64,000 nt of DNA. It comes from Octopus vulgaris (taxonomy: Eukaryota). The position numbers and the translations under genes were made by a program. Shown piece by piece: positions 12,660 to 42,923 of this stretch (positions are counted from its first letter, which is position 1; the number at the start of each line of letters is the position of its first letter). Under the pieces are notes generated by a model. It ran no database searches, had not been told where the DNA came from, and saw only the letters and a list, made by a program, of their open reading frames with translations. The DNA is taken from assembly GCA_951406725.2 (NCBI GenBank), contig OX597824.1:99820001-99884000 (forward strand), given 5' to 3'.

Positions 12660-14290
12660 TCCAACGCACTTTGGGTTCCAAACCATCCACTGTAGAATAA
12701 GACCGGCAGTTACAGGGGATCAAATTGCAACACTTACCCATATATATTTCTGAATTTGAGTGCTAGTAGTATTATTGCCTCTGGTATTTCTTTCGTTGGC
12801 TATGGACCTGCTGTTGTTGTTGTTGCTGTCGGTGCTGTTATTTCTGGGCATTGGATCAGTAGTTCCACTGGTGCTGGCGTGGCTGTCATCTTCGGCTGTA
12901 GTGCTGCGGTTGTAGTTGTCGGTATTGGTGTCTCTGCCGCTTAATGTGTTGCTGCTGCCACCGCCTCCAGAGTTATCATTGTTGTTGCCAATGTTGTTGG
13001 ATGAGCTGCTGCTGCTATTATTCTTGTTGTGAGAGCCAAATACCGCCACTACCTCACATGTGTCGTATGACCCTTCTCAGCCTCGTTTTGCCCTCCCTCA
13101 CTGGGTACTCATTGTACTCCCTGTATGAGAAACCAGCCCCTACTCACATTTCAGCGGTGTTCACAAGTATTTTTTTAATGTTGGGTGCACAGCTAAAGGA
13201 GACTATTAGGTTGTGCCTATTGAACAAACATCCATCTCTGTGTCTGCACGAAATGCTTGTCTACTAAGCTATGGAATATCCTTCCCACACAAGTTTTAAT
13301 GTTGTGGGAGAAGTGGGATGATGCAAACCAAACTACCTCCCTTTTGTGAGGCCCAGCATATAGGAGATGTGGTCCTTAGACCCACTGAACACCAGGGTCT
13401 CACTGTAATGGAGGGCCGATACGTCAAAAATTTCTTGATTTGAGGATAGGTTCAAGATCCTCTTGCTGACATCCTTCACTAGGCTCCTAAACATGATGGA
13501 CAAGCTGCATGAAGCTGTGTTGATGTAGGACAGCCTCTGGTCTGATTTGCTGCAGGACCTGTATGAACAGGAGCTCAAGTCTAGTGTGACATCCAGGAAG
13601 GTTACAATTGTGAAGTTGGTCTCAGTTGTTATTTTGAGTCCCATGGAGCCTGGGGCACTAGTCAGGTACTTCCTAAGTCTGTCAAGAGTGTGCCCGTTGG
13701 CTCCTCTAGAGATGGTCATCGTCTCTGTAGAGACCAAAGAGGACTAAAGGGAACTTCTTCTCTAAGGTTTCCGGGATATAGCCCAATTAGATCACAAATG
13801 TCGGCGCTATTGTAGGCTCCTCACCACATCAAAACAGCCATTGGGGTCAGTTTGTTTGACCCAGGTCGAACCTTTATTAAACAGCATCATTTTCCTGGTG
13901 TGCATAATGACAGCTATGTCTCTATTGCTAATATCAGTGAAGCCCCTAGCAAAGGAAAGTGCTTTGATCAGTAATCCATTCAATATAGACAGGTAAAAGT
14001 CAACTATGTAGAATTGGGTGAAACTTGCCCTACTTTTCACCTGTTTTGCATTAAACCATGAAATTACTTCATAGGTATTGTGCCCTAGGGAGAGGTTGGA
14101 GGCTCTCCTTATGTCGTCATTGATTTTCCTTACACTTATCTCGGATTTGGCCAGGTGGATCAGGCAGCATTTGGAATTAGAAGCAAAGTTTTGTTTATGG
14201 TCCTTGATTGTGATGAAGGCATTCCTCTTATATAATATTTTTACCCTGTCAGTTATACCTAGATTGTTGGCTTATTGGCTTCACTGTTAA
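12660..14290 (-). mobile_element. Penelope-like retroelement, degraded RT region
   Basis: FTQFYIVDFYLSI, GCFDV, VTFLDVTLDL and LSYINTAS remnants match PLE RT motifs; many frameshifts. Boundaries approximate. Confidence 0.8.
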
Positions 14291-15054: not shown

Positions 15055-15356
15055 ATATGGATACAGGACGTCACTAACAGTAAACAACGTGAAATACGAA
15101 AGCAAATGAGTTCAATACGCAAACAATGAGAGAAACAAATGGAAAACAGGACAAGTAACATAAAGAACGGCCTTTTATCAGTTGTCGGCTGTCTGTCTAC
15201 TCTTCATTTCAAGCATTCAAAATGAGGAGTAGATAGACAGCTGACAACTGATGAAGGATCGTTCTTTATGTTACTTGTTCTGTTTTCCATTTGTTTCTCT
15301 CATTATTTGCTTTTGTATTTCATGTTGTTTACTATTGGTGATGTCCTGTACATATA
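15055..15356. repeat. About 300-bp near-palindrome (head-to-head copies of a dispersed repeat)
   Basis: Left arm CAGGACGTCACTAACAGTAAACAAC...CTACTCTTCATTT mirrors right arm AAATGAGGAGTAG...GTTGTTTACTATTGGTGATGTCCTG across a loop of about 9 nt. A single arm recurs at about 29730-29887. Confidence 0.85.
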
Positions 15357-16029: not shown

Positions 16030-19000
16030 CTACTCTGCATTGGTCACCAGAGTGATATTTGATCACTTTATAGAGTGTTTGAATGTCGGTTTGGTGTCTG
16101 GAATAGGATAGCTTACCTTAGGGGCAGGTAGAAGCTCTTTAACCTGAGTTGGTAATCTACCTAGGAGAGGGAGATCTCTGAAATAAAACCCGAGGCCTTG
16201 GAAGTTCCTGGTTTTTTCAATTTTCATCTCACACCGGTGAAACTCTTCTTGGGCCAATAGGTGGGGATAATGCAGTGCAAGCTACACCGTCTGAAAATTA
16301 TTCATCTGCACAAGCACTTCTTGTACACCAAATCTTAGTAAAATCATTGAATTGGTTGGTTGGCAGAAACTTAAAAATGCTCTTGTAACTTACTTTAAAA
16401 TGTCTCAAACAGATTCAGTCGATGGCTAAAAAGGCTTACGAATGTCAGAGTAATAGGTCTGGCTCAGCAGGTGTCTCAGTGTATCACAGGCTGGGCCTGG
16501 TCGTCATCCTGCCACTGTGGTCAAACAATCTATCTTTTGGAGAGGCCTATCTAAGGGTCAGCATAGAAAATCTGGTGTTGGGTTTGCTCTCAAGAATACA
16601 TTAGTATCCTCCATTGCAGAGCTTCCAAGTAGTGTATCAGAACAAACCATGTCAAATGGTAGGTTTCTTACCGTTGTCAGTATTTGTGCATCAACAATAT
16701 CCCATGCTAATGAAAATTGTAGGACAGTTTTATGATGATCTAGCACAATTATTGAGGAAAGTACCAATTTCAGACAAGCAGGTCATATTAGGAGATTTCA
16801 ATGCAAGAGTTGGAAAGGACTGCATTTCATGGCCTGTTTTAGGTTGACATGGGATTGGAAAACATAATAAAAATGGAGTAGCCCTTTTGATGTTTTGTAC
16901 TGAGAATAATCTGGTTGTCACCAACACTCTGTTTAAGCAGAAAATTAAATATAAAACCATCTAGATGCACCCAAGATCTGAGCACTGGCATCTCATAGAC
17001 TATATTTTGATCAGAAACGGTGATATGAAAGACGTTTCTAGCATTTGGGCCATGAGAGGAGCAGAGAGCTGGACTGACCATCGTCTAGTGCATGGAAAAA
17101 TAGATTTTTTGATAATGCCTAAAAGTCAACAGTCTGGTCCTAAGGTACCCAAAAAGTTAAATGTTGCAAACTTTAAATTATCAAGCAACTTGCAAAGATT
17201 CCACAACGCTATAGAAAGTATCAATCTTGACCCAAACAATCTATGGGAAGATTTCAAAACAAAAACGTATTTCAGGCTATTAGTTCATCACTGGGATTTA
17301 AATCACCTAAGTCCAGTGACTGGTTCTCAGATAGTTCAGCAGGAATTCTTGATCTACTTTTAGAAAAACAAAACTTAGGCAATACACTTCTTTCTCAGTC
17401 CTTGAACCCCAACTCAAATGAAGCTTACAGAAAGCTGAAAAGGAAAGTGCAGACTGCTCTAAGGAATGGTAGAATGATAGAGCAAAAGGGGCACAAGAAG
17501 CAGCTTATAAAAATGATGCCAAGGGTTTGTACTCTTATGTTAAAGAGGTATACGGCCCCCAAAATCTTCTTCAATAGCTCCAGTGAGAACAGCAAATGGA
17601 CATTTGCTTCTGACTGACACTGCTTCTATTCATAAGCACTGGGTAGAACATTGCTCTGCACTTTTGAATAGACCATCATCCGCTGACATGAGGGCGATAG
17701 AAAAAATCAAACACCTTTCAGTTATAGAAGAGATGGCATTTGAACCAACTCTAAATGAGATTTATTTAGCTGTGAATAAGCTGAATAATAATAAGTCTCC
17801 AAGGGCTGATGGAATTGTAGTGACGTCATATTCCAGTGTGCGCACACACAACGTCATTCTTCAGTGTGCGTGTGCGGGGTTGGAACCTTCTGGAAAGGCA
17901 TAAGGAAGTTCCCTCATGCACATGCGCTACAGACTGAAGAAATTCTATCGCATTCCTTAATAGCGTCGTTGACTTGAGACACGGCGATAGAAGAGAACGG
18001 ACGTATTTTTAAACATGTGATCAGCCTATTCTCCTGTCCCAAACGCTTAGGATTTGACCTGTTCCGTTGCTGCTGAATTGTAAGAAACTTACAAACGTTA
18101 GAATTCAGCCTTGCTGTGTTGAACTAGGTGGATACCAGTATACCATCGTGTTTCATTGTTGAATAAAGAATCATATATATTTTTAAAATTGCGTTTTGTT
18201 ACCGACTGGTAGTTTCTAGAAACAAAAAGAAAGGAAATTGTGTTGCACCCAAGTTGCACCCCAAAAGTGTAAAGAAGCAACCAGTTCCCTTTACAGAATC
18301 TATGCGGAAGTCTTGAAATATGGGGGTGACAAAATGTTTAAACTCATAAATACATTAATTTGTCACTGTTGGAGAACTGAAAAAGTGCCTCAAGACTGGA
18401 TTGATGCCATTTTAGTCTCCTTGTATAAATTGGGGCCAAAGGATCTGTGTAGTGATTTTCGTGGGATTTTGCTTTTGTCTATAGTTGGAAAGGTACTTGC
18501 CTGCATTTTGTTAGAACATTTAAATACCTTCATAGTTCTAAATATTGTATCTGAGTCTCGGTGTGGTTTATTTCCTCCAGGGGCACAGCTGATTGTATCT
18601 TTACTATCAGACAATTACAAGAAAAGTGCATTGAACAGAATCTTGCTCTATTCCATTGCTTTGTTGATTTGAGCAAAGCATTCGATATTGTTAATCGAAA
18701 TGCTCTGTAGCTAATTCTAAGAAAATAGGTTGCCCATAAAAATTTGTAAATATGATCAGGGATTTGCATCAAGATAGGAAAGTTAGAGTTAACTTTGGTG
18801 GTAGGCTCTCTGAATCTTTTGCCGTGGAAAATGGAGTGAAGCAAGGAGACCTTGATGCATCCACCCTCTTTGCAATATATTTTGCTGTTGTGTTGTCACA
18901 TGCTTTTTAAAACTCTGAGGAGGATATTTACATAAAATATCGAACAACAATCTCTTGTATCTGCATTTGACTTACCTTGTGATGATTTTGGCTTGACTAC

Positions 19001-20106
19001 CAACTTGAAAAAACAGTTGTAATGCACCAACTTGCATGTAGTGCTGTTAGTAACCCCCACTAAAATTTTTGTTAAGAGAAAATTACTTGAGGTTGTCGAT
19101 TCGTTTGTCTGCCTTGGAAACTTGATACAGAAATACACCTTCGAATTCAAAAGACAGTAAAAGCATTTGCTGGCTTTGAGTCACATGTATGGTGCCAGAG
19201 ACATATAAATAAGAATACAAAGCTGGCTCTTTACAAATCATTTGTCTTACCATCCCTGTTGTATTCTTGTGAAACAAGGACTTGTTATGAAAAGCATTTT
19301 AAATTGTTAGAACAATTCCACTAAAAATGCTTTCATTGCATTTTAAACATTAAATGGAGTTCTTTTACTCCAAACACAGATGTCCTTGCATCTGCAGGCA
19401 TCACCTCAATTAAAGCTATGATTTTGAGGAACCAAATGAGATGGTATGGCCATATTGTTTGAATGGCGAAAGAACGCATGCCGAAACAACTGTTTTATGG
19501 TAAGCTTGCAGAGAGGAAATGCTATTGGCGTAAACCTAAAAAAAAAGGTTTAAGGACGGCATAAGGACTACTATGAAGTCGCTTGGAATGGTTCCAGAAG
19601 ATATAGAAACCCTTGCTTCGGATCGAAGTGGATGGCAAACAAAAGTGTGGAGTGGAGTGAAAGCGTTTGAAGAGGCCAGGATAACACAAGTAAGACTCAA
19701 AAGACATCTAAGGAAGAATGTAACAATCGAGAAGGTGAATGATAATAACGTTTTTGTATGCACAGTCTGTGACAGACCATGCCTGTCTTTAGCTGGCCTC
19801 AAATCTCATTTGCAAACCCATGGAAAGCGAACCTCCACCAACTATTCTGCCTATATGACTGTACACACCTTTGAATGCAGTGTATGCCAGAAGGTTCACA
19901 AATCTAACGGAGACCTCAAAAGACATTTTAAGATCCACAAAGATCAGAACTTATCTGCAGCTCTTGGTGGTCCAAATCGGATATGCAATCTATGTGGGTG
20001 TCTTTTCAGAACATTGTCTGGTTTAAAAAGCCACATCAAATGCCATGATAGTGCAAAGGAGTAGGTACAGGATGTGGTCAAACTTTGCATAAGGAGTAAA
20101 CAACCA

Positions 20107-21794: not shown

Positions 21795-22055
21795 CCCAAA
21801 AGCCTGAGTAATGATAAAAATGTATGTCTGCATTTCTGTAAAAAGGTGCTAAAGGAGAAAAAGAGCCAACCACTTGAATTAATGAGTGTTCTGTCAACCT
21901 TCAGTTGAAGTCCAATTTCTCATTATTACGAGTATATGTGGAGTGGGTTGATGACGTCAGAGTTTTTGGTGGTGGTGTCTAGACCCGATGGATTAAGAGA
22001 CTGACCAACAAAACAGCAAAACAACACAACAACAAACAACAACAAACATACTTAC

Positions 22056-22281
22056 ATCAATGTAATCCACTTTAGCATTGTACATGACATGTCGGGCGCC
22101 AAGATTCTTGAGCATATCTTCGAGTCTCCTTGGTTCATTTATACGGGCAAGACATTTCTCAACTGTCCCCATTACCCGAAGAGCATGAGAGATTAAACGT
22201 GAGTTCTGCTTCATATCTTCTGCTGCCAGACCACGAAATGGCATGAACACATCTTGAACGTCTGGATGGGTCTCAAAAAGA
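22056..22281 (-). CDS. Globin-X-like globin, central exon (B12.2 to G7.0)
   Basis: Acceptor ttttttcag; AA|T join gives MFMNLFETHPDVQDVF (Pro C2, Phe CD1), SHALRVM (distal His E7), LGARHVMY (proximal His F8). Donor GAT|gtaagt. Confidence 0.95.
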
Positions 22282-22293
22282 CTGAAAAAAGAT

Positions 22294-22294
<1 letters not shown>

Positions 22295-22347
<53 letters not shown>

Positions 22348-22374
22348 TAACAACAACAACAACAACAACAGCAA

Positions 22375-22412
<38 letters not shown>
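22295..22412. repeat. Compound trinucleotide microsatellite (CAT)n-(CAA)n-(CAG)n-(TAG)n
   Basis: Directly visible, immediately upstream (gene sense) of the globin exon-2 acceptor. Confidence 0.95.
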
Positions 22413-25199
22413 ATACTGATGATCTTTTATCTTTTACTTGTTTCGGTTATTAGACTGCGGTCATACTGGGGCACCGCTTTGAAGAGTCAAACGACAAGAC
22501 CCAGTACTTATTTTTAAAGCCTAGTATTTATTCTATCGGTCTCTCTTGCCGAAGCACTAAGTTACAGGGTCATAAACACGCAAACACTGGGTTATCAAGC
22601 GGTGGTGGTGGGGAACCACAATGATACACACAGATATATGTGTGTGTGTGTATGTGTGTGTGTATATATATATGTATATATATATATATATATATATACT
22701 TGCAGTTTCCATCAACAAAATCCACTCACAAGGCTTGGTCTAAGCTATAATAGAAGACACTTGTCCAAGGTGACATGCAGAAACACTGAACTGGGAACTG
22801 TGTGGCTGGGAAGCATACTCTTTACCACAGAGCCACGCCTCCGCCTTTGGTGATGATGATGATGATGATTTGCTTAATAACCATTAAGAGTTGACAAAAA
22901 TCATTGGGGGCAGCTGCAGGGGATATAGGGCTAAATAACATAAACAGAAAAGGACAAAGGCAAAGAAGCCAAAAAATCTCAAACTAGGAATAATTCCTGA
23001 AAAAGTTGGAGAACTCTGAGGGCTACTCATAAAACCCCCTGAAAACCACGGTCACGCTGACGATGATGATAAGTGCCTTCTGCCAGTTATCTTCCTCCAA
23101 TCTATAGGCACATGTTCACTTGGATCTTGCTCACCACTCTCAACTTCTTTTCAAGAAATTTTCCGAAAGATAGTACTTCTCTCCCCAGCCTCATTTTTCT
23201 TTACAAGTAAAATTTGAAAAGGTTGGTGAGGTTTGGCCACAAACAAAGGTGTCTGCCTTCAGTCCTTTCAATCTCGTCTACCACACAACCTCTTTTGCTA
23301 AAATCATCAGACATAAAGATTACCTGCCCTTCTTTGCCAAAGGAAGGTAAAATGAAGATGATCTTCATGCTGCACTCAGCTAACAGCCAGATCCATCCGA
23401 CACATAACAACAGATATTCACCATAACCCCACAAGTGTGATTTGGTGCTTGCGTGTTGATGTATGGGATTCATTAAAATTTAGTTGCTTGTGTCTATGGC
23501 CGTGCAATTATTTATTTCTGTTTTTGATCATGTCGGTGTGGTATTCTGGCAGTTGGTGTGTGTGTATATGTGTGAGTGTGTGTGTGTGTGCGTGCACGCA
23601 TGTGAATTAGGTTGTGTTTGTGTTTGTAATGTTGGTGATGCTTGTGATGGTGGTGGTGAGGTGGTGACGAAGATGTTGCTGATAGTGTTGCTACTTTGTT
23701 GAAGGTGGTATTGGTGTATCGTTGTTTAAACGCAGCTCTCGTCTTCCCTCAAACCTCCCAACCATTTTGTTGGTACAATGTTTGCTTTCCTTCAGTTAGT
23801 CGCTTTTTATATCATTCAGAGTCGCACATCACTTTCGGCACAAAATATGTCCGAGTGGTCCAAATCAATAAAAGACATACCTTAGCAGGGGTGAGGGACA
23901 GTATCATTGTTGTTTTGGAGCTTTCTGTTGCCTTGGGGTCGGTGCTTCTTTTGTTAATATTTTATTCACAGTTGATGGTGTTTTTACAGTTGTTGTTTCC
24001 AGTTTTACAAATGGCACTGCAGGCTACTGTTGCCATAGTTGAGTGCTGTTGCTGCTGTTGTAGTTGTTATTGTTATGATGTGTGTTGGCAGTAATGGAGA
24101 CCTTCTTTCAGTTGCCACTTTATGTTGTTATTGTTGGGACAGAAGGCCCTGAGAGGGCCGATGTACTTGCATTTGTGACATTTGGACTTCTACTCTCCCA
24201 GGATGTCTCTTTGATCGGGGACCGTGTCTAGTGTCTCAAGAATTTCCAACCCAATTTTCCTTTCAGAATCTTCATTTCTAGCAGCTTCTAGAGCCCCCTG
24301 ACATTACATATTTCACTCCCATCCCCAGAAGCATAGTTTTAGTGGAAGGTTAGTGGGGTTTTTTTCTTTTTTTATCCTGGTCACTTTTAGTCCCAGATAA
24401 ATTGGTATTAGTGTAAATTTGTCACTTCTATGTGGAACTGTTGAGTGCTTGCTTCTGGAATAGAGTCTTCGACTGAACATTCACTTGCTTACAATAATAT
24501 TGGCTGGAATATGTAACAAAATCTGTTTTGCCAAATGTGTTTCAAGCACAGTTTGGCTTGCTCTAAGGAGGCCTGTTCCTGTGTACGTTGCTTCAACGAT
24601 GTACAGATGTACATCATCATTCTTCTATGCTTTTGCTCTCCTCTGACTCGGTTGATGTGCTGTTGGGATTCTTTCAAGTACTTATGCTTTTTGTCCAATA
24701 TGACTACTGAAAAGATTTTGTAATTCTAACTCCTGAGCAGCCCTTTTCCATGCTTCTACTACTGTTACTTCTGTTGCTGCTGTCATTTGTGAGAGTTGCT
24801 TAAGTCCTGCTGTTACAGTTGTTTGTTTGCTGCCACAGGGGGCGATAGTGTTGGCAATGGACTCCTTTCTCCCACTAGGGATTTTGTGGCTGGCGGCAAT
24901 GGTTTTACTGCAACTACTTGCTACTCTGACATATTGTCATTGTTACTGCAGCTATTGCTGTTGTTGTTACTGATGCTGATGCTACAGTTGCTGGCCATTA
25001 CTTCATATATATCTGATATATATTGTTATTGTTGTTGGCATCCTTTTTGTCTCAGGAGAAAATGGAGTTGCACATAAAATAGCTAGTCCGACTTTTACAT
25101 TTCATGTCCTAATACATCTCCTGCTGTGGCTGTGTAGTCCTATCCTGGACAAACACTCCCTCTGGCAGGCGACGCAGATGTAACAAAGACTTTTCCTGG

Positions 25200-27390: not shown

Positions 27391-27750
27391 CCATTACTAC
27401 ATATGTATCCAATATAGCGGATATATAATTGTTAAAGAGGACAACAAACATTAAGGCAAGGCAAACATTTCAAGTCATATACATTATTATCATTAGGAAA
27501 AAAATTCAGTCTTATGACTGTTTCTGAGATATCCCAGAGTATGGGATATTCTGTTGTTGGAAACAAATAGGGAAAATGAGAGGTTATAGATTAATGAAAC
27601 AGCATAGAGGACATGCATACAGGAATAAGGCATCACTGTTATAATTATTATTAGTATCATTACTAGTAGTAGTAGTACTAATAATAGTAGTAGCAGCAGC
27701 AGCAGCAGTAGTAGCAATAGTAGTAGTAGTAGCCCTCAAAATAGGAAACA

Positions 27751-29025
27751 GAGTGAAGCAAAGAGACCTTGATGCATCCACCCTCTTTGCAATATATTTT
27801 GCTGTTGTGTTGTCACATGCTTTTCAAAACTCTGAGGAGGATATTTACATAAAATATCGAACAACAATCTCTTGTATCTGCATTTGACTTACCTTGTGAT
27901 GATTTTGGCTTGACTACCAACTTGAAAAAACAGTTGTAATGCACCAACTTGCATGTAGTGCTGTTAGTAACCCCCACTAAAATTTTTGTTAAGAGAAAAT
28001 TACTTGAGGTTGTCGATTCGTTTGTCTGCCTTGGAAACTTGATACAGAAATACACCTTCGAATTCAAAAGACAGTAAAAGCATTTGCTGGCTTTGAGTCA
28101 CATGTATGGTGCCAGAGACATATAAATAAGAATACAAAGCTGGCTCTTTACAAATCATTTGTCTTACCATCCCTGTTGTATTCTTGTGAAACAAGGACTT
28201 GTTATGAAAAGCATTTTAAATTGTTAGAACAATTCCACTAAAAATGCTTTCATTGCATTTTAAACATTAAATGGAGTTCTTTTACTCCAAACACAGATGT
28301 CCTTGCATCTGCAGGCATCACCTCAATTAAAGCTATGATTTTGAGGAACCAAATGAGATGGTGTGGCCATATTGTTTGAATGGCGAAAGAACGCATGCCG
28401 AAACAACTGTTTTATGGTAAGCTTGCAGAGAGGAAATGCTATTGGCGTAAACCTAAAAAAAGGTTTAAGGACGGCATAAGGGTTACTACGAAGTCACTTG
28501 GAATGATTCCAGAAGACATGGGTACCCTTGCTTCGGATCGAAGTGGATGGCAAACAAAAGTGTGGAGTGGAGTGAAAGCGTTTGAAGAGGCCAGGATAAC
28601 ACAAGTAAGACTCAAAAGACATCTAAGGAAGAATGTAACAATCGAGAAGGTGAATGATAATAACGTTTTTGTATGCACAGTCTGTGACAGACCATGCCTG
28701 TCTTTAGCTGGCCTCAAATCTCATTTGCAAACCCATGGAAAGCGAACCTCCACCAACTATTCTGCCTATATGACTGTACACACCTTTGAATGCAGTGTAT
28801 GCCAGAAGGTTCACAAATCTAACGGAGACCTCAAAAGACATTTTAAGATCCACAAAGATCAGAACTTATCTGCAGCTCTTGGTGGTCCAAATCGGATATG
28901 CAATCTATGTGGGTGTCTTTTTAGAACATTGTCTGGTTTAAAAAGCCACATCAGATACAATGATGGCGTTAAGGTGTAGGTACAGGAAGTGGTCAAACTT
29001 TGCATAAGGAGTAAACAACCACCAT
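27751..29025 (+). mobile_element. 3' part of the C2H2-finger RTE LINE, near-identical to 18834-20110
   Basis: Colinear 1.28-kb match; ORF 28380..28979 has three C2H2 fingers; ends CAACCACCAT+(ACAT)n. Confidence 0.92.
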
Positions 29026-30845: not shown

Positions 30846-32407
30846 CATATATATATGTAATGAACACTCAAGTGAAATTCCTCTCTCCCCTTTATTATAT
30901 ACACATGCATTCAAACATAGCAGGTAACAGCTAGCCTTTGGCCTCTACTTGGATCCCGTTGTGTCCACTACTCTGATTGGTTGGTATTGGTGCAATTTGT
31001 CTCTTACTTTGTTGTATCAATTTGCAGCGTATAATCAATCAGAGCTTCTAAATAAAATCACGGGAGAAAGTCTGTTCTCAATTCAGTTTTGAGCCTATAG
31101 CTCCTTATAAAAACCCTGATATTCCTCATCTCAACGATTTGGTTCCAGACCTTTTGAGGTCTAGCCACTGACCACACAAGATACAGCCAGTTCCAGTGAC
31201 AGTAGCCATGTTGAGACTTACCAACTTCGTCCAACACCATTATGGTGATCTCTTTCTTCGTCGCCACCATCATATTCTTAACTTCGTCAACATTATCTCT
31301 ACATACACAGCTCACAAGCAACTCATCCTGGTTCCAACACCTCACTGTTCATGAATTACTTCACCTTGGATCAACAGCAGATATACAACTTGCAAAAACT
31401 CCTGTACCAAGTGACCAAGGCAGCATTACAGCCACAACTTCACATACAACATGTACAGCAACCAACTCAACATCATGGCTGCAACTTCTTGATACAGTAT
31501 TTCAACTACCATGTACAATTGACTACGAACTGGTATTCATATTCTTGTGTCTATGAACATTCTTCTAACTTTTTGACTCCTTCACTCTCTCCTTCATTGC
31601 TATTCCTATATGTACTTAACATACATGCATACATCCATGCCTATATACACATACATTTTGTTCTCATGACAGCCTGTCTATTATTCTATATACATGACGT
31701 ACACACACACACACACACACATGTTAACATATCCATAAATCTTCTCTTAAACATTCTACTCGGTTCTGTTTTCTCTTTTTCCCTCTGGCACATATATGTA
31801 ATATTTATATTTATTGTAAGGGCTGTGTGATGTACCTGAGACTAATTCTCATTACCTTGTATTGCATGGTCTTTACATATATATATATAAAACGATAATG
31901 ATGTTATTGCCTTCACTGCTATACCTGTGCATATTTCACATACCAACAGATACGTATATAGCACGCGGAATAGAACCAGCGAGGGGGTGATAACTCGATC
32001 TATGAGAAATAGCAACATAATTTTCTAAAGGAGTTCAAAATTGGCTTCAATAGAGAGAAAAAAGGCAGTGTGAGTTATGGATGAAGTCATCTAAATAACA
32101 ATAATGAAAGGTGACACACATTTCCACCCATATGCCTATCCATTTAGAAGTACATATATATCTCATAAATATATTCACACACATATCAGCTACACACTGG
32201 CATACATACAGTTTATGCAAAGATGCAGACACATATACATTATAGGTAAATAAGGGGCTATCAACCTTTTCTGATAGAAAATCTGATATCAGGTAACTGA
32301 GCATATGACAAAATAAAAATGTGTGTGCGTGTGCATGTGTGTACATGTATATATGTATGTATATGACATACACACATAATATAGAATATATACAGTTTAT
32401 AACTTAC

Positions 32408-32637
32408 TTCATGAACATCACAACACCAACTCTGGTCATGTTGCACTGGACTATTTTCCATGTTTCTAGAACGAGTTCCTTTTGTTTGTCAGTAATGTAA
32501 TTTGCCACATTATTGCTCTCAGACAAGCCATAACTGGCCTCACTAATAACAACTGAGTGACTTGGTTCAGATGGTTGCACTTTGCTTGACACTTTTCTCT
32601 GTTTCAACTTCCGATTCTTTGAATAATCGCTGCCCAT
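32408..32637 (-). CDS. Globin-X-like globin, first coding exon (N-terminal extension, helices A-B)
   Basis: MGSDYSKNRKLKQRK...ITDKQKELVLETWKIV...VGVVMFM; donor AA|gtaagt, phase 2 (B12.2). Exons sum to 230+226+132=588 nt (195 aa). Confidence 0.92.
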
Positions 32638-33850
32638 ATTGATGGGAGTCCATTCCTCGGTACAAACTGGTACAAAATAATTTAAAATGTTGGAGTTATC
32701 CCTATAAAATATTCTCTGGGAATAATAAAATAATAAGAGTGAAAATTCAGTGTTTGAAATTAATGATAAATAAAATTTTAAAGACTGTGTATAAATATTT
32801 GCTTATTTGTAGGGTGATATGAGGCATAACTGAATGTGAACACCTGAAGTAGATTGTATAAAAGACACTTCACTAATAAGTTGTGTTGTGATCATTATTG
32901 TTTTGATATTCCAATAGGAATGGTGTTAAATATTAACTCAACACAAATATAAATATTCTTTCCATCCAATGTAGAATTCCTTACATTTATTCCAACAACC
33001 CTATACCTTTGGAACACTTGGATTCTTACTACATTATATACTGAGCCATGCCTTGGTAGATTTGTTCACTCTACTTACACGATACATGTGTAAAAACATG
33101 GAATCTGTGACAGTCACCCGAAAGTGAAAGTAAGACTGTCTAAATATAACTACTCCTCTTTTAATGTTATTAGTACAGTTGTTGTTGTTCTTATTGCTTA
33201 TATTGTTGCGGTTGTATTAGTTGGCCATCCATAATTCTATTATTATTTCTACTGTTTTCATTATCAGTGGTTTTCTTATTGTTGTTTTGCTGTTGCTGTT
33301 GTTGTTGTTATTGCTGCTTTGTTAATGTGCTTGTTCTTGCTGTTACTCTGGTTATTGTGGCTTTGGCTGCTGTGGTTGTTGCTATTGTCGTAATTCTGCT
33401 GTTGCCATTGTTGTTGTTGTTACTATTCTTGCAATGTTAAAGCCTCAATTCTTACGGCTTTTTGATCATGAAGCATCCTTGCTGGCATTGTTGTTGGATT
33501 TTGTTTTATTTTCATTTTTTGTTTTGTTGCATTTATTATTGTTGTTGTTGTTGTTGTTCTCCTCTTCCTGCTGTTGCTGTTGTTACTCTTAATCCAGGCA
33601 ATGTTGTCGTTGGTGGTGTTTTAAATCTAGAGAGTTTGTTGTTACTGCTACTGCTGCTGTTGTTGCCACTGTCAGTGTTGCTGCCACTGCTGTTGGTGCT
33701 GTTGTTGCTGCTTGTTCAACTGAAGCTGCTATTGCTCTTCATAGTGCTGCTGCATCTGCTGCTGCTGCTCATTGTTTCTGTTGTTAATGCTGCTGCTGTC
33801 ATTATTGATAACTTTATAATGGCAACATAATATATATATATATATATATA

Positions 33851-36034: not shown

Positions 36035-36038
<4 letters not shown>
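33851..36038 (+). mobile_element. RTE LINE with the RT domain deleted; retains APE endonuclease and C-terminal zinc fingers
   Basis: IAALSETR, ESGVGF and LGDFNARVG endonuclease motifs. At about 35493 NRKA is joined directly to the post-RT QMRWSGHL segment. C-terminal CTICEKVCKTSAGLKVHMRCH. Both flanks are (TA)n. Confidence 0.9.
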
Positions 36039-36079
<41 letters not shown>

Positions 36080-36154
36080 ATAAGATTAGATCGTATACGA
36101 GTGGGTATATATTTGTAAAAAAGAAGTTTGAAAATGCCACTATATTAGATAAAT

Positions 36155-36208
36155 TTTAATTTTTACATGTTTCGGTTCTTGAAATAACGAACCTTATCAA
36201 AAAGAATT
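36155..36208 (-). ncRNA. Type I minimal hammerhead ribozyme, U3-A8 core variant (putative)
   Basis: Minus strand AAUUCUUU-UUGAUAA-GGUUC(10-nt loop)GAACC-GAAAC-AU-GUA-AAAAUU: 5-bp helix II, GAAA, palindromic ACAUGU helix III, GUA triplet, weak AU helix I. Confidence 0.55.
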
Positions 36209-36569
36209 TTTTAATAATAAAGAGTATAATGGAATAGTTCATAATTGTTTCATACATTCAATAGAATCCATGCTATATACATTCAATAGAATCCATGTTC
36301 TTGAAAAGGCGAAAAATATATTATAAGGTGTAAGTCGTTCCTTACTGTTTTGTCAAGTGTAGTGCAGGAGTTCATTATAGATTTTACCTTGTGTTCCGAT
36401 GGGAGCAACAGTAGTGATTCTTGGTTGTCGTAATTTTGGTCAACTTGTGATTGTTGGGTTTATATCAGTTAAGTCAGTAGTAGCTGTGGTCTCTGGCACT
36501 GTTCACTGACGTCATATAATTCCAAACCAATCAAAGCCAAGCTTCAACGATTATAAGGAAAAGACCCCC

Positions 36570-36920
36570 AACTGTATCCTGTTTAGGAAACCAGCCAAGC
36601 AGAACGACAAGTTTTACCACGGAAGAAAAACGTCATCAATTTTTTAGCGAATCGAAATTAGATCTGACCCATAATTGTATCCTGTTAGGTGGCTAGTTTG
36701 ACCACGGAAGAAAAACGTCATCAATTTTTTAGCGAATCAAAGTCAGATCTGACCCATAATTGTATCCTGGTTAGTTTGACCACGGAAGAAAAACGTCATC
36801 AATTTTTTAACGAATCAGAATTAGACCTAACCCATAACTGTATCTTGTAGGGAAACCAATCAAGCTTGACTACTGAGGTAAAACGTCATCAATTTTTTGA
36901 CTAATCAAAATCAGATCTGT
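36570..36920. repeat. Tandem minisatellite, 4 units of about 78-90 bp
   Basis: ACCACGGAAGAAAAACGTCATCAATTTTT starts at 36616, 36701 and 36779, with a degenerate copy at 36869. Confidence 0.9.
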
Positions 36921-37608
36921 TCACAGAGAAAAAAAATTCTTTTTATAAATTTTTCCTTCCCTAAGACATACCACTGCCAGCGGGAGTGACTGTTTAAGGA
37001 TCTGAGAAATTGTAATTGCCCCCACCTCCACTATTTTAATTCTCTCACTGTGGCCGTAGTAACAGTGACCACATATATATATATACATATCATATATACA
37101 CATACACACACATACATACATACATATACACATACATATATATAGTAGAATAATAAAAAGTGGTTCTTGGTGCAGTATAATATATTTGAAATATAGATAT
37201 ATATATACATACATGTACATATATATACATACATATATATGTACATGCATATATATATGTATCTGTGTCACCTTACTGGCACTTGTGCTGGTGGCACATG
37301 AAAAAACATTCGAGCAAGGTCGTTGCCAGTGCAGCTGGACTGGCTCCTGTGCAGGTGGCACATAAAAAGCACCATTTGAGCGTGGTCATTGCCAGTACCA
37401 CCTGACTGGCCTTCATGCCGGTGGCATGTAAAAGCACCCACTACACTCTCGGAGTGGTTGGTGTTAGGAAGGGCATCCAGCTGTAGAAACTCTGCCAGAT
37501 CAGATTGGATCCTGGTGCAGTCATCTGGTTCGCCAGATGTCAGTCAAATCATCCAACCCATGCTAGCATGGAAAGCGGACGTTAAACGATGATGATGATT
37601 ATAATGAT

Positions 37609-37644
<36 letters not shown>

Positions 37645-37647
<3 letters not shown>

Positions 37648-38224
37648 TAAGTAATTAAGAGTTTAGCAACGATTTGCCTCACCACACACCGAATTTAGAA
37701 ATAGCAGTCAAAGAGTTATAGCTATTCTTTCTACTAAAGGGGAGATCTCAGTAAAACCACAGCACTTGAAAGGCAAACACAGACAGGCAAGAGAGAAAGA
37801 AATGACGGCAATCTATCATACAATTTTAAGTCACCTACGGACGTCATCATCATCATCATCATCATCGTTTAGCGTCCGCTTTCCATGCTAGCATGGGTTG
37901 GACGTACGTTTCGAAATTAAGTTTTAGGAAAGCATAAGAATTAGATAATTATGTCTTACCCAACTTTTTTTCTCATCAGCGTAGGACACTACAATTATGA
38001 ATAATTGTATATTAAAGATCTCCCTTTTAGTAGAAAGAATAGCTATAACTCTTTGACTGCTATTTCTAAATTCAGTGTGTGGTGAGGCAAATTGTTGCTA
38101 AACCCTTAATTACTTAGTATTACTTAAACTTTCCTCGAATGAGGCTTTTACATGCCGAAATCTACTTGGTGAAATTAATGATTATTCCAAATTAATTAAT
38201 TTCACCCTATATTATTACTGATAA

Positions 38225-41571: not shown

Positions 41572-42160
41572 CTATGATAGGATGTACTTCCTTTCATCTG
41601 GGCAAAGATTAAAAATTTCACTTCTGATATTCAGGTAAATGCCTGGGAGTTGGGTGCTCTTTATAATTGCTCTTTTCTCAGCTGAGCATAATCTGCACTT
41701 CCTACTGCTGTTGAAGTATACTTTACAGTTCTGCAGAATCTTCCATTTTATGCTGTATTCAGTGGTACTTTCTTTCAATAACCATATGTGCTTGGTCAGG
41801 GTTGTGGTGTAACATCTTTCCAGGATGTTGAAGGAGGAATTATGGTTGTTATAGTGGGTTTTGAAGCGCTCTTCAGTTGTTTCCATGTTCTTTCACATGT
41901 TTGGTTTCCCATTTGGTCTTATCTCTGTCTCATATACAACAATCTCTATTTTACAATGGCCATTCAGTGGATATGTTGTTCTTATTCCTACATGAGTATC
42001 CTGCCTCTATCTCAGGTGTGGGCCTACCTACTAAAATCTTTTTTACATTGGGTGCACAGCTAAAGGAAATTTTTTGGGTATGCCTATTAAATATTTTGCT
42101 AAACCTTTTTGTATGGGGGGAAGTGCTTATCTATTAAGCTAAACAAAATCTTACCAATCT
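41572..42160 (-). mobile_element. Penelope-like element, GIY-YIG endonuclease region
   Basis: ERFKTHYNNH...TTLTKHIW...IKWKIL...CRLCSAEK...LNIRSE is typical of PLE endonuclease C-termini; upstream KIGKILFSLIDKHFP. Confidence 0.85.
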
Positions 42161-42923
42161 TCAAAGTGTTTCTTCCATCTGGCATTGACAGCAACATTAG
42201 ATTTAAAGGTGGTGATATCATCACTTTTGAGAGGAGCCTGATCATGCATTGAAGAATCAAAGAAGGCATTTCCTTTGTTGTTGAGTTATTGAAGCTGTTC
42301 ATAATTTTCATCAAACCATTTTTGATGTCCCCTGGTCTTGAAACCAAGTGTTTCTTTGCAGGTGGTGATGATGGAATTTTTTGGTTGGTTTTGAGCAGAT
42401 ATTCTTGGGGATTTTGCTGGAATCATTTAGCATCCTGAAATTTTTGAACATTAAATTTCTTGCTGCTGTTCTGATTTTGGTGTTTCCTTTTTTGTGGAAT
42501 CTTCATTTTCATGGTGGAGGAGATGAGATAATGGTCTGTTCAACATTCATTTGCACATGTGACAGCTTGGGTTTTCAGCATATCTTAATGGTCACAGAAT
42601 CTTATAATGATACAGTGAATCAAATGCAACATAAGCTTAATTTTCCTCTTGTTTTGAACATTAAATTTCTTGCTGTAGGAAGGAGAAAATGCTACACACC
42701 AAAAAGGAGCAAACATGAATGAAAGAAAGGAAGCAAGGGAGAATTAAAGAGGAGGATTTTCATAAACCCAGACATCTGAATCAGTGAGCTTAGTATCAAC
42801 CGATCTTTCATTAAAGAGTTGGAAGCAAAATGAGAATCTGAACTAGGGACATGATCTCAGAATGTAAACAAAATTAAGAATAGGTAAATAATTCCTAAGA
42901 ATACAAAAAGCCTTGATGACATC

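Follow-up and report, generated by a model that had tools for sequence, protein, structure and literature searches.

The hammerhead motif and its host element

The window, by which we mean the whole 64,000-nt stretch of Octopus vulgaris DNA that was analysed, carries a type I minimal hammerhead motif at 36155–36208 on the minus strand, within a noncoding repeat element of approximately 1 kb. A sequence-only reading had pointed out the hammerhead letters without stating the strand, and every one of them was confirmed at its coordinates. The core box U3-U4-G5-A6-U7-A8-A9 occupies 36200–36194 (U3 at 36200, A8 at 36195). Helix II (36174–36193) joins GGUUC (36193–36189) to GAACC (36178–36174) across a 10-nt loop; its five pairs are all Watson–Crick, include the G10.1–C11.1 closing pair, and have a predicted pair probability of 0.995. 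The GAAA box (G12-A13-A14-A15.1, 36173–36170) leads into the palindrome ACAUGU (36170–36165), which forms helix III in a cofold of two copies and is the predicted dimer interface. It is followed by the GUA triplet (36163–36166), with a predicted cut between A17 (36164) and 36163. GAAAC, ACAUGU, and GUA share letters and are spelled together as GAA-ACAUGU-A. The helix I arms (36161–36203), UUU at 36203–36201 and AAA at 36163–36161, give three A–U pairs, in agreement with the earlier description of this helix as weak and AU-only.

The core requirements are present in the sequence: N3-UGA-N-N8-A, GAAA, a Watson–Crick 3–8 pair, A15.1–U16.1, and an H at position 17 (here A17). The unpaired base between positions 9 and 10.1, usual but not universal in minimal hammerheads, is absent, with G10.1 placed directly after A9; it is likewise missing from the M. 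japonicus and S. kowalevskii (2) rows in Fig. S3 of PMC4209133. By these features, 36155–36208 is a hammerhead motif of the minimal class.

The frequency of chance matches was assessed with a descriptor comprising a U3–A8 or C3–G8 box, a G–C-closed helix II of 4 bp or more, GAAA, a palindromic helix III, and UH. When the window was shuffled 150 times block-wise with dinucleotides preserved, no match appeared on either strand (helix II span capped at 40 nt for the shuffles). In the real window, the descriptor itself returned two motifs, the U3–A8 motif at 36155–36208 and, at minus 37979, a canonical C3–G8 motif whose loop II is long; a looser scan that permitted one box mismatch returned the 36155–36208 site alone. 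Rfam gave no match in the window at its gathering threshold, and the 34 matches at E values up to 10 were only of the microsatellite-driven miRNA type, with no hammerhead among them. Rfam does miss the U3–A8 motif, as had been expected of consensus scans, but the canonical motif at 37979 went undetected as well, so the miss is not specific to U3–A8. That descriptors restricted to CUGANGA undercount hammerheads is confirmed.

The motif at 37979–37830 (minus strand) is presumably the "first" hammerhead implied when the sequence-only reading called 36155–36208 the second. It combines a canonical CUGAUGA box with a loop II of ∼52 nt and a helix III formed by the palindrome ACGUACGU. A short insert of the abundant SINE-like end interrupts the 6-bp helix I (CCUACG/CGUAGG) at precisely the GUC cleavage site and is flanked on both sides by copies of ACGTC. 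A 105-nt inverted repeat, 96% complementary, flanks this hammerhead at 37644–37748 and 38016–38120, an arrangement to be expected of a fragment from an inverted pseudo-LTR.

Other features of the window include globin gene exons on the minus strand at 32404–32802 and 21993–22433 (Pfam Globin, E = 8e-12 for the latter); the 32404–32802 exon has an MG start reminiscent of acylated globins. Both hammerheads lie upstream of these exons on the same strand and could be located in a 5′ intron. Decayed ORF pieces at 41572–42200 and 13333–14271 (minus strand), which resemble remnants of a Penelope endonuclease and reverse transcriptase (RT), had no hammerhead beside them in the looser scan, and the remnants at 13810–14271 and 41575–41892 gave no Pfam match. 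A 27-nt match to the 3′ side of the 36155–36208 hammerhead (E = 0.008) lies at 22425–22451 in a common SINE-like end, which reads hairpin-GAAAC-AA-GUA on the minus strand with the core box absent. Two LINE fragments with zinc-finger-like C-termini (18829–19839 and 27746–28754), 97–99% identical, stand ∼8.9 kb apart. At 15093–15336, a 117-nt inverted repeat with a 10-nt spacer carries CTGATGA in one arm and CTGATAA in the other, with no downstream GAAA helix beside either.

The element that hosts the U3–A8 motif extends over 36076–37070 on the minus strand. Its 3′ junction is a pure (TA)n microsatellite at 36037–36079, located beyond the terminus of a remnant LINE-like ORF. The 5′ boundary is placed from a degenerate TA/CA microsatellite at 37071–37144, the presumed 5′ junction, and cover of the family in sequencing contigs reaches 36690. 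An internal tandem repeat of 78–85-bp units with TGACGT motifs, whose number varies among copies, spans 36608–36919 and contains no hammerhead; loose contig ends run on into sequence resembling 36920–36950. Depth in the sequencing runs described below peaks at 36101–36142, and at 36080–36100 it stands, in all four runs, at 12–18% of its 36122–36142 value; 16 contigs of run X1 switch to (TA)n at 36106. From this drop and these contigs, we infer a common 3′ end at 36106 and a terminal extension, or tail, of ∼30 nt on a minority of copies (36076–36105, minus strand), to which loose contig ends also point. Measured from the predicted cut site, the common end is 58 nt away and the tail end 88 nt; the minimal hammerhead lies near the 3′ end, as it does in Penelope-like elements.

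No recognizable ORF was found in the element: none of seven short frames reached the Pfam cutoff, and no RT or GIY-YIG remnant was seen. Penelope-like copies that are 5′-truncated lack the RT and GIY-YIG ORF by nature. Penelope-like elements have a 30–40-bp tail on one end and (TA)n targets (PMC8557442), and the (TA)n insertion site, the 30-nt minority tail, and the palindromic helix III make a Penelope-like pseudo-LTR end the likely identity of the element. The published Penelope layout places promoter and intron in the pseudo-LTR (PMC2377424). Donor-, acceptor-, Inr-, and CRE-like words occur in the element, as a tally free of any chance control, and no spliced joint was found in X10, the one run guessed to be RNA. 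As for the partial-tandem or inverted arrangement of pseudo-LTRs, alignment within the window showed a single unit of the element.

We consider it quite improbable that the element is instead a nonautonomous retrozyme-like or SINE-like unit rather than a truncated Penelope pseudo-LTR. A length of ∼1 kb and the absence of an ORF would suit such a unit, as would the reported retrozyme consensus of up to 972 bp and the frequency of solo monomers (bioRxiv 10.64898/2026.07.22.740005). Against this, no head-to-tail repeat bearing the hammerhead was found in the window, and the motif belongs with the minimal hammerheads of Penelope elements rather than with the canonical loop–loop type of metazoan retrozymes (PMC7229834). 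The two assignments overlap, because the same preprint derives retrozymes from Penelope pseudo-LTRs (bioRxiv 10.64898/2026.07.22.740005).

A segment at 36290–36330 (minus strand) resembles the hammerhead's 5′ half and was examined as a putative degenerate copy of it. As an internal duplicate it gained no support from within-window alignment, whose score was equalled or exceeded in 565 of 2000 shuffles. Two X1 contigs have an intact U3–A8 box at this place, which the window copy lacks; the segment may be an ancient internal duplication that lacks GAAAC, or else a misaligned sister subfamily.

U3–A8 across the repeat family

The stretch 36080–36600 is present in 20 of the 24 listed sequencing runs, which come from 10 studies and carry four organism labels; none of the 20 was listed as RNA. 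Contigs from four of these 20 runs (X1, X2, X16, and X10; three labels) were aligned to 36080–36690 at 80% likeness or more, with variants recorded at a 3% share threshold (848, 728, 299, and 132 contigs per run). Summed depth over the motif is ∼56,000 in X1, compared with 20–60 for most single contigs listed; it marks the element as a high-copy repeat and is not itself a copy number.

The best 40 of 48 variant rows fall at 39 distinct places over 611 bases. Among these 40 rows, at the 3% threshold and across all four runs, there is no substitution in 36147–36203 and no other letter at 36200 or 36195, that is, neither a plus-strand G at 36200 nor a C at 36195. The weakest listed rows rest on one contig, so the unlisted ones are marginal. 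This alignment answers the question, raised by the sequence-only reading, of whether U3–A8 is fixed in the family: no variant at either position is listed at the 3% threshold. As for selection, the variant-free span has P ∼ 0.02 when picked post hoc, a value that rises to 0.08 if only the motif proper is counted. A longer variant-free gap, of 98 nt, occurs elsewhere in the aligned stretch, and the span is weak evidence of constraint.

Depth falls steeply at 36204, and U3 lies near many contig ends. Clipping of contigs before A8 would require a plateau of 2.0–2.4 times the depth at 36175 in X1, X2, and X16 and 1.4 times in X10, whereas cover that reaches 36203 requires 0.8–1.4 times this depth. 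Cover through the core box is supported by this depth arithmetic, with U3 less securely covered than A8. One X16 contig covers 36174–36279 with just two differing letters, and other contigs that span U3 are listed with two or three differences. The U3–A8 box is also spelled in the loose letters of two X1 contigs, in a different context.

Family variants spare the boxes. A 3-nt insertion beside helix II leaves GAACC intact. Helix I varies through 8–11 nt inserted into its 3′ arm and through other letters at 36204 and 36206 on its 5′ side. In 21 loose ends from X2, helix III is shorter (GAAAUGUA), again with the boxes kept.

Because no other letter is listed at position 3 or 8 in four runs, U3–A8 came from the family founder and did not arise by decay of the window copy. 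The alternative is that a canonical C3–G8 hammerhead underwent two independent transitions in this copy, or that the motif is a chance look-alike. It draws on an AT-rich genome with many decayed repeats and on the 80% floor of the alignment, below which a C3–G8 sister family would be missed. This explanation is largely refuted by the contig alignment, with its best 40 of 48 rows devoid of a C3 or G8 letter, and is further opposed by the clipping test on depth and the empty shuffles; we regard it as extremely improbable. The window copy moreover differs from the X1 majority at only 12 of 611 places (∼2% divergence), so two chance transitions at exactly positions 3 and 8 are an unnecessary assumption. 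The two transitions that the sequence-only reading had offered as a caveat thus find no favor, and its argument against decay holds. Its proposal of covariation fared differently. The 3–8 pair is invariant within the family, and covariation can therefore be judged only against other hammerhead families.

Template-switch palindrome repair was considered as the source of both core changes, given an upstream arm nearly complementary to the core. It was rejected on the ground that the core is family-wide, whereas the arm varies and is in part specific to the window copy. Searches of viral, metagenome, and prokaryote contigs with the motif pattern (U3–A8 or C3–G8) and with the element 3′ end returned no match, as expected for an animal repeat.

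Dimer folding and predicted activity

C3–G8 pairs in the active hammerhead core, and minimal hammerheads with a palindromic helix III are thought to cleave slowly, as dimers (PMC4209133, PMC6765202, PMC3884650). The minimum free energy structure of a two-copy cofold contains both helices II and a 6-bp intermolecular ACAUGU duplex (−4.6 kcal/mol), with helix I absent. In a nearest-neighbor dimer model, which omits tertiary contacts, a slipped register with U4–A17 (−16.2 kcal/mol) and one with U3–A17 (−15.2 kcal/mol) are more favorable than the active register (−14.5 kcal/mol). U3 can pair with A17 as an alternative to A8. This U3–A17 pairing at GUA had not been pointed out by the sequence-only reading, nor had the upstream hairpin described below. 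In the published case, a C3–G17 trap cuts the rates of minimal hammerheads at least 300-fold (PMC3884650). By analogy, U3–A17 is like this trap, and its A–U version would be weaker than G–C.

Single-strand folds (z of −1.1 to −1.3) are uninformative for a hammerhead. With 161 nt of context, the core of the window copy pairs with an upstream AU-rich arm (36207–36217, minus strand) at P = 0.73–0.99 and is predicted to be buried by it. This pairing uses the letter at 36213, which is absent from 85–97% of the aligned depth.

Among published minimal hammerheads, cleavage is poor even in dimers, and helix I can be as short as 2 bp (PMC4209133). The activity of the present motif is probably low, since its helix I consists of three A–U pairs only and U3 has a rival partner in A17. 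The window copy itself is probably a passive relic that would be inert even if the family motif works, as its core is predicted to be sequestered by the upstream hairpin and no partner copy lies in the window.

Taken together, we consider it probable that the locus holds a minimal type I hammerhead with a family-wide U3–A8 pair, at the likely end of a Penelope-like pseudo-LTR, and that this motif would cut itself after GUA only as a dimer. In the founder, two copies in minus-strand transcripts would have paired through their ACAUGU palindromes to form the 6-bp helix III, and U3–A8 would have stood in for C3–G8 in the active core. The cut between 36164 and 36163, ∼60–90 nt from the element end, may then have processed the transposition RNA. 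The window copy is a solo insertion into a (TA)n tract.

It is unlikely, in our estimation, that U3–A8 is family-wide and catalytically dead, such that a hammerhead inactivated by two AT-ward transitions and the U3–A17 trap was amplified passively with the element. The predicted preference for the U3–A17 and slipped registers over the active one is what this account would expect, as are the three A–U pairs of helix I, and each of the two changes is an A/T-directed transition in an AT-rich element whose variant-free span speaks only weakly for constraint. Naiad elements have, in addition, spread without canonical hammerheads (PMC8557442). Yet the remaining core positions, the G10.1–C11.1 pair, and the palindrome are all intact, and variant copies alter the loop, flanks, and helix III length (as in the 21 X2 loose ends) and nevertheless keep the boxes. 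Natural U3–A8 hammerheads have furthermore been reported active in vitro (PMC3088659), and GUA sites are found in published C3–G8 minimal hammerheads (PMC4209133).

If the motif does cleave, a more specific proposal, possible but doubtful, is that the family is young and high-copy and carries a working U3/A8/A17 hammerhead in which U3 toggles between the catalytic U3–A8 pair and the U3–A17 trap. The trap would then act as a built-in brake, an A–U counterpart of the forbidden C3–G17, released only upon dimerization or with a protein chaperone, and subfamilies would differ in helices I and III while sharing one core. An active U3/A8/A17 motif would put the position-17 rule to a natural test in a core that lacks C3.

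Comparison with published hammerheads

The U3–A8 swap is already published, including in the Penelope-like class, and the earlier description of it as a known but uncommon natural variant agrees with PMC3088659 and PMC4209133. Perreault et al. (2011, PMC3088659) described natural U3–A8 hammerheads with the same compensatory 3–8 swap and stated them to be active in vitro; the passages on these examples do not tie them to Penelope-type elements. The authors attribute the tolerance of variant cores to offsetting tertiary contacts, whereas none are evident in the window motif.

The closest parallel comes from Cervera and De la Peña (2014, PMC4209133), who reported ∼1,300 U3–A8 minimal hammerheads, missed by their first descriptor, in the Cercyon Penelope-like elements of Schistosoma mansoni. 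Like the window motif, the Cercyon hammerheads are type I minimal motifs with U3–A8, a weak helix I, and a palindromic helix III, and they are mostly solo genomic copies; the box of S. mansoni family 3, UUGAUAA, is identical to the one described here. The present case differs in its host, which appears to be another animal group, and in that a linked ORF was not found for this copy of the element. Two of the 56 rows in Fig. S3 of the same paper are U3–A8; as we read them, position 17 is G in one and U in the other, and A9 is followed by an additional base. The window motif departs from both, since its position 17 is A, A9 has no such base after it, and loop III is palindromic and 2 nt long. 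U3 occurs with A17 in none of those 56 rows.

In the literature searched, no relevant paper on U3–A17 or on octopus hammerheads was found, and the main text of PMC13282606 contains no mention of the word ribozyme; Lünse et al. or Przybilski and Hammann (2007) may already cover U3 with A17. As a class, the window hammerhead is ordinary, and its noteworthy point is the U3/A8/A17 combination. The family adds a further animal lineage with a family-wide U3–A8 hammerhead, which suggests more than one origin or spread of the swap among Penelope-type elements.

Metazoan non-LTR retrozymes resemble the window element in being noncoding, repeated, equipped with a type I hammerhead, and thought to derive from Penelope pseudo-LTRs (PMC7229834; bioRxiv 10.64898/2026.07.22.740005). 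They are built, as described there, of head-to-tail units with a hammerhead in each, in contrast to the single minimal motif and hammerhead-free tandem repeat of the window element. No such units were found in the window, and the element does not fit this definition.

A further comparison is with the Xenopus tropicalis (2) minimal hammerhead (PMC4209133, Fig. S3), which has the same GGUUC/GAACC helix II and the same GUA triplet as the window motif. It differs in its C3–G8 core, a helix I that contains G–C pairs, and the absence of loop III. The UUGAUAA box of S. mansoni family 3, together with the C3–G8 core that X. tropicalis (2) combines with this helix II and GUA site, constitutes cross-family covariation.
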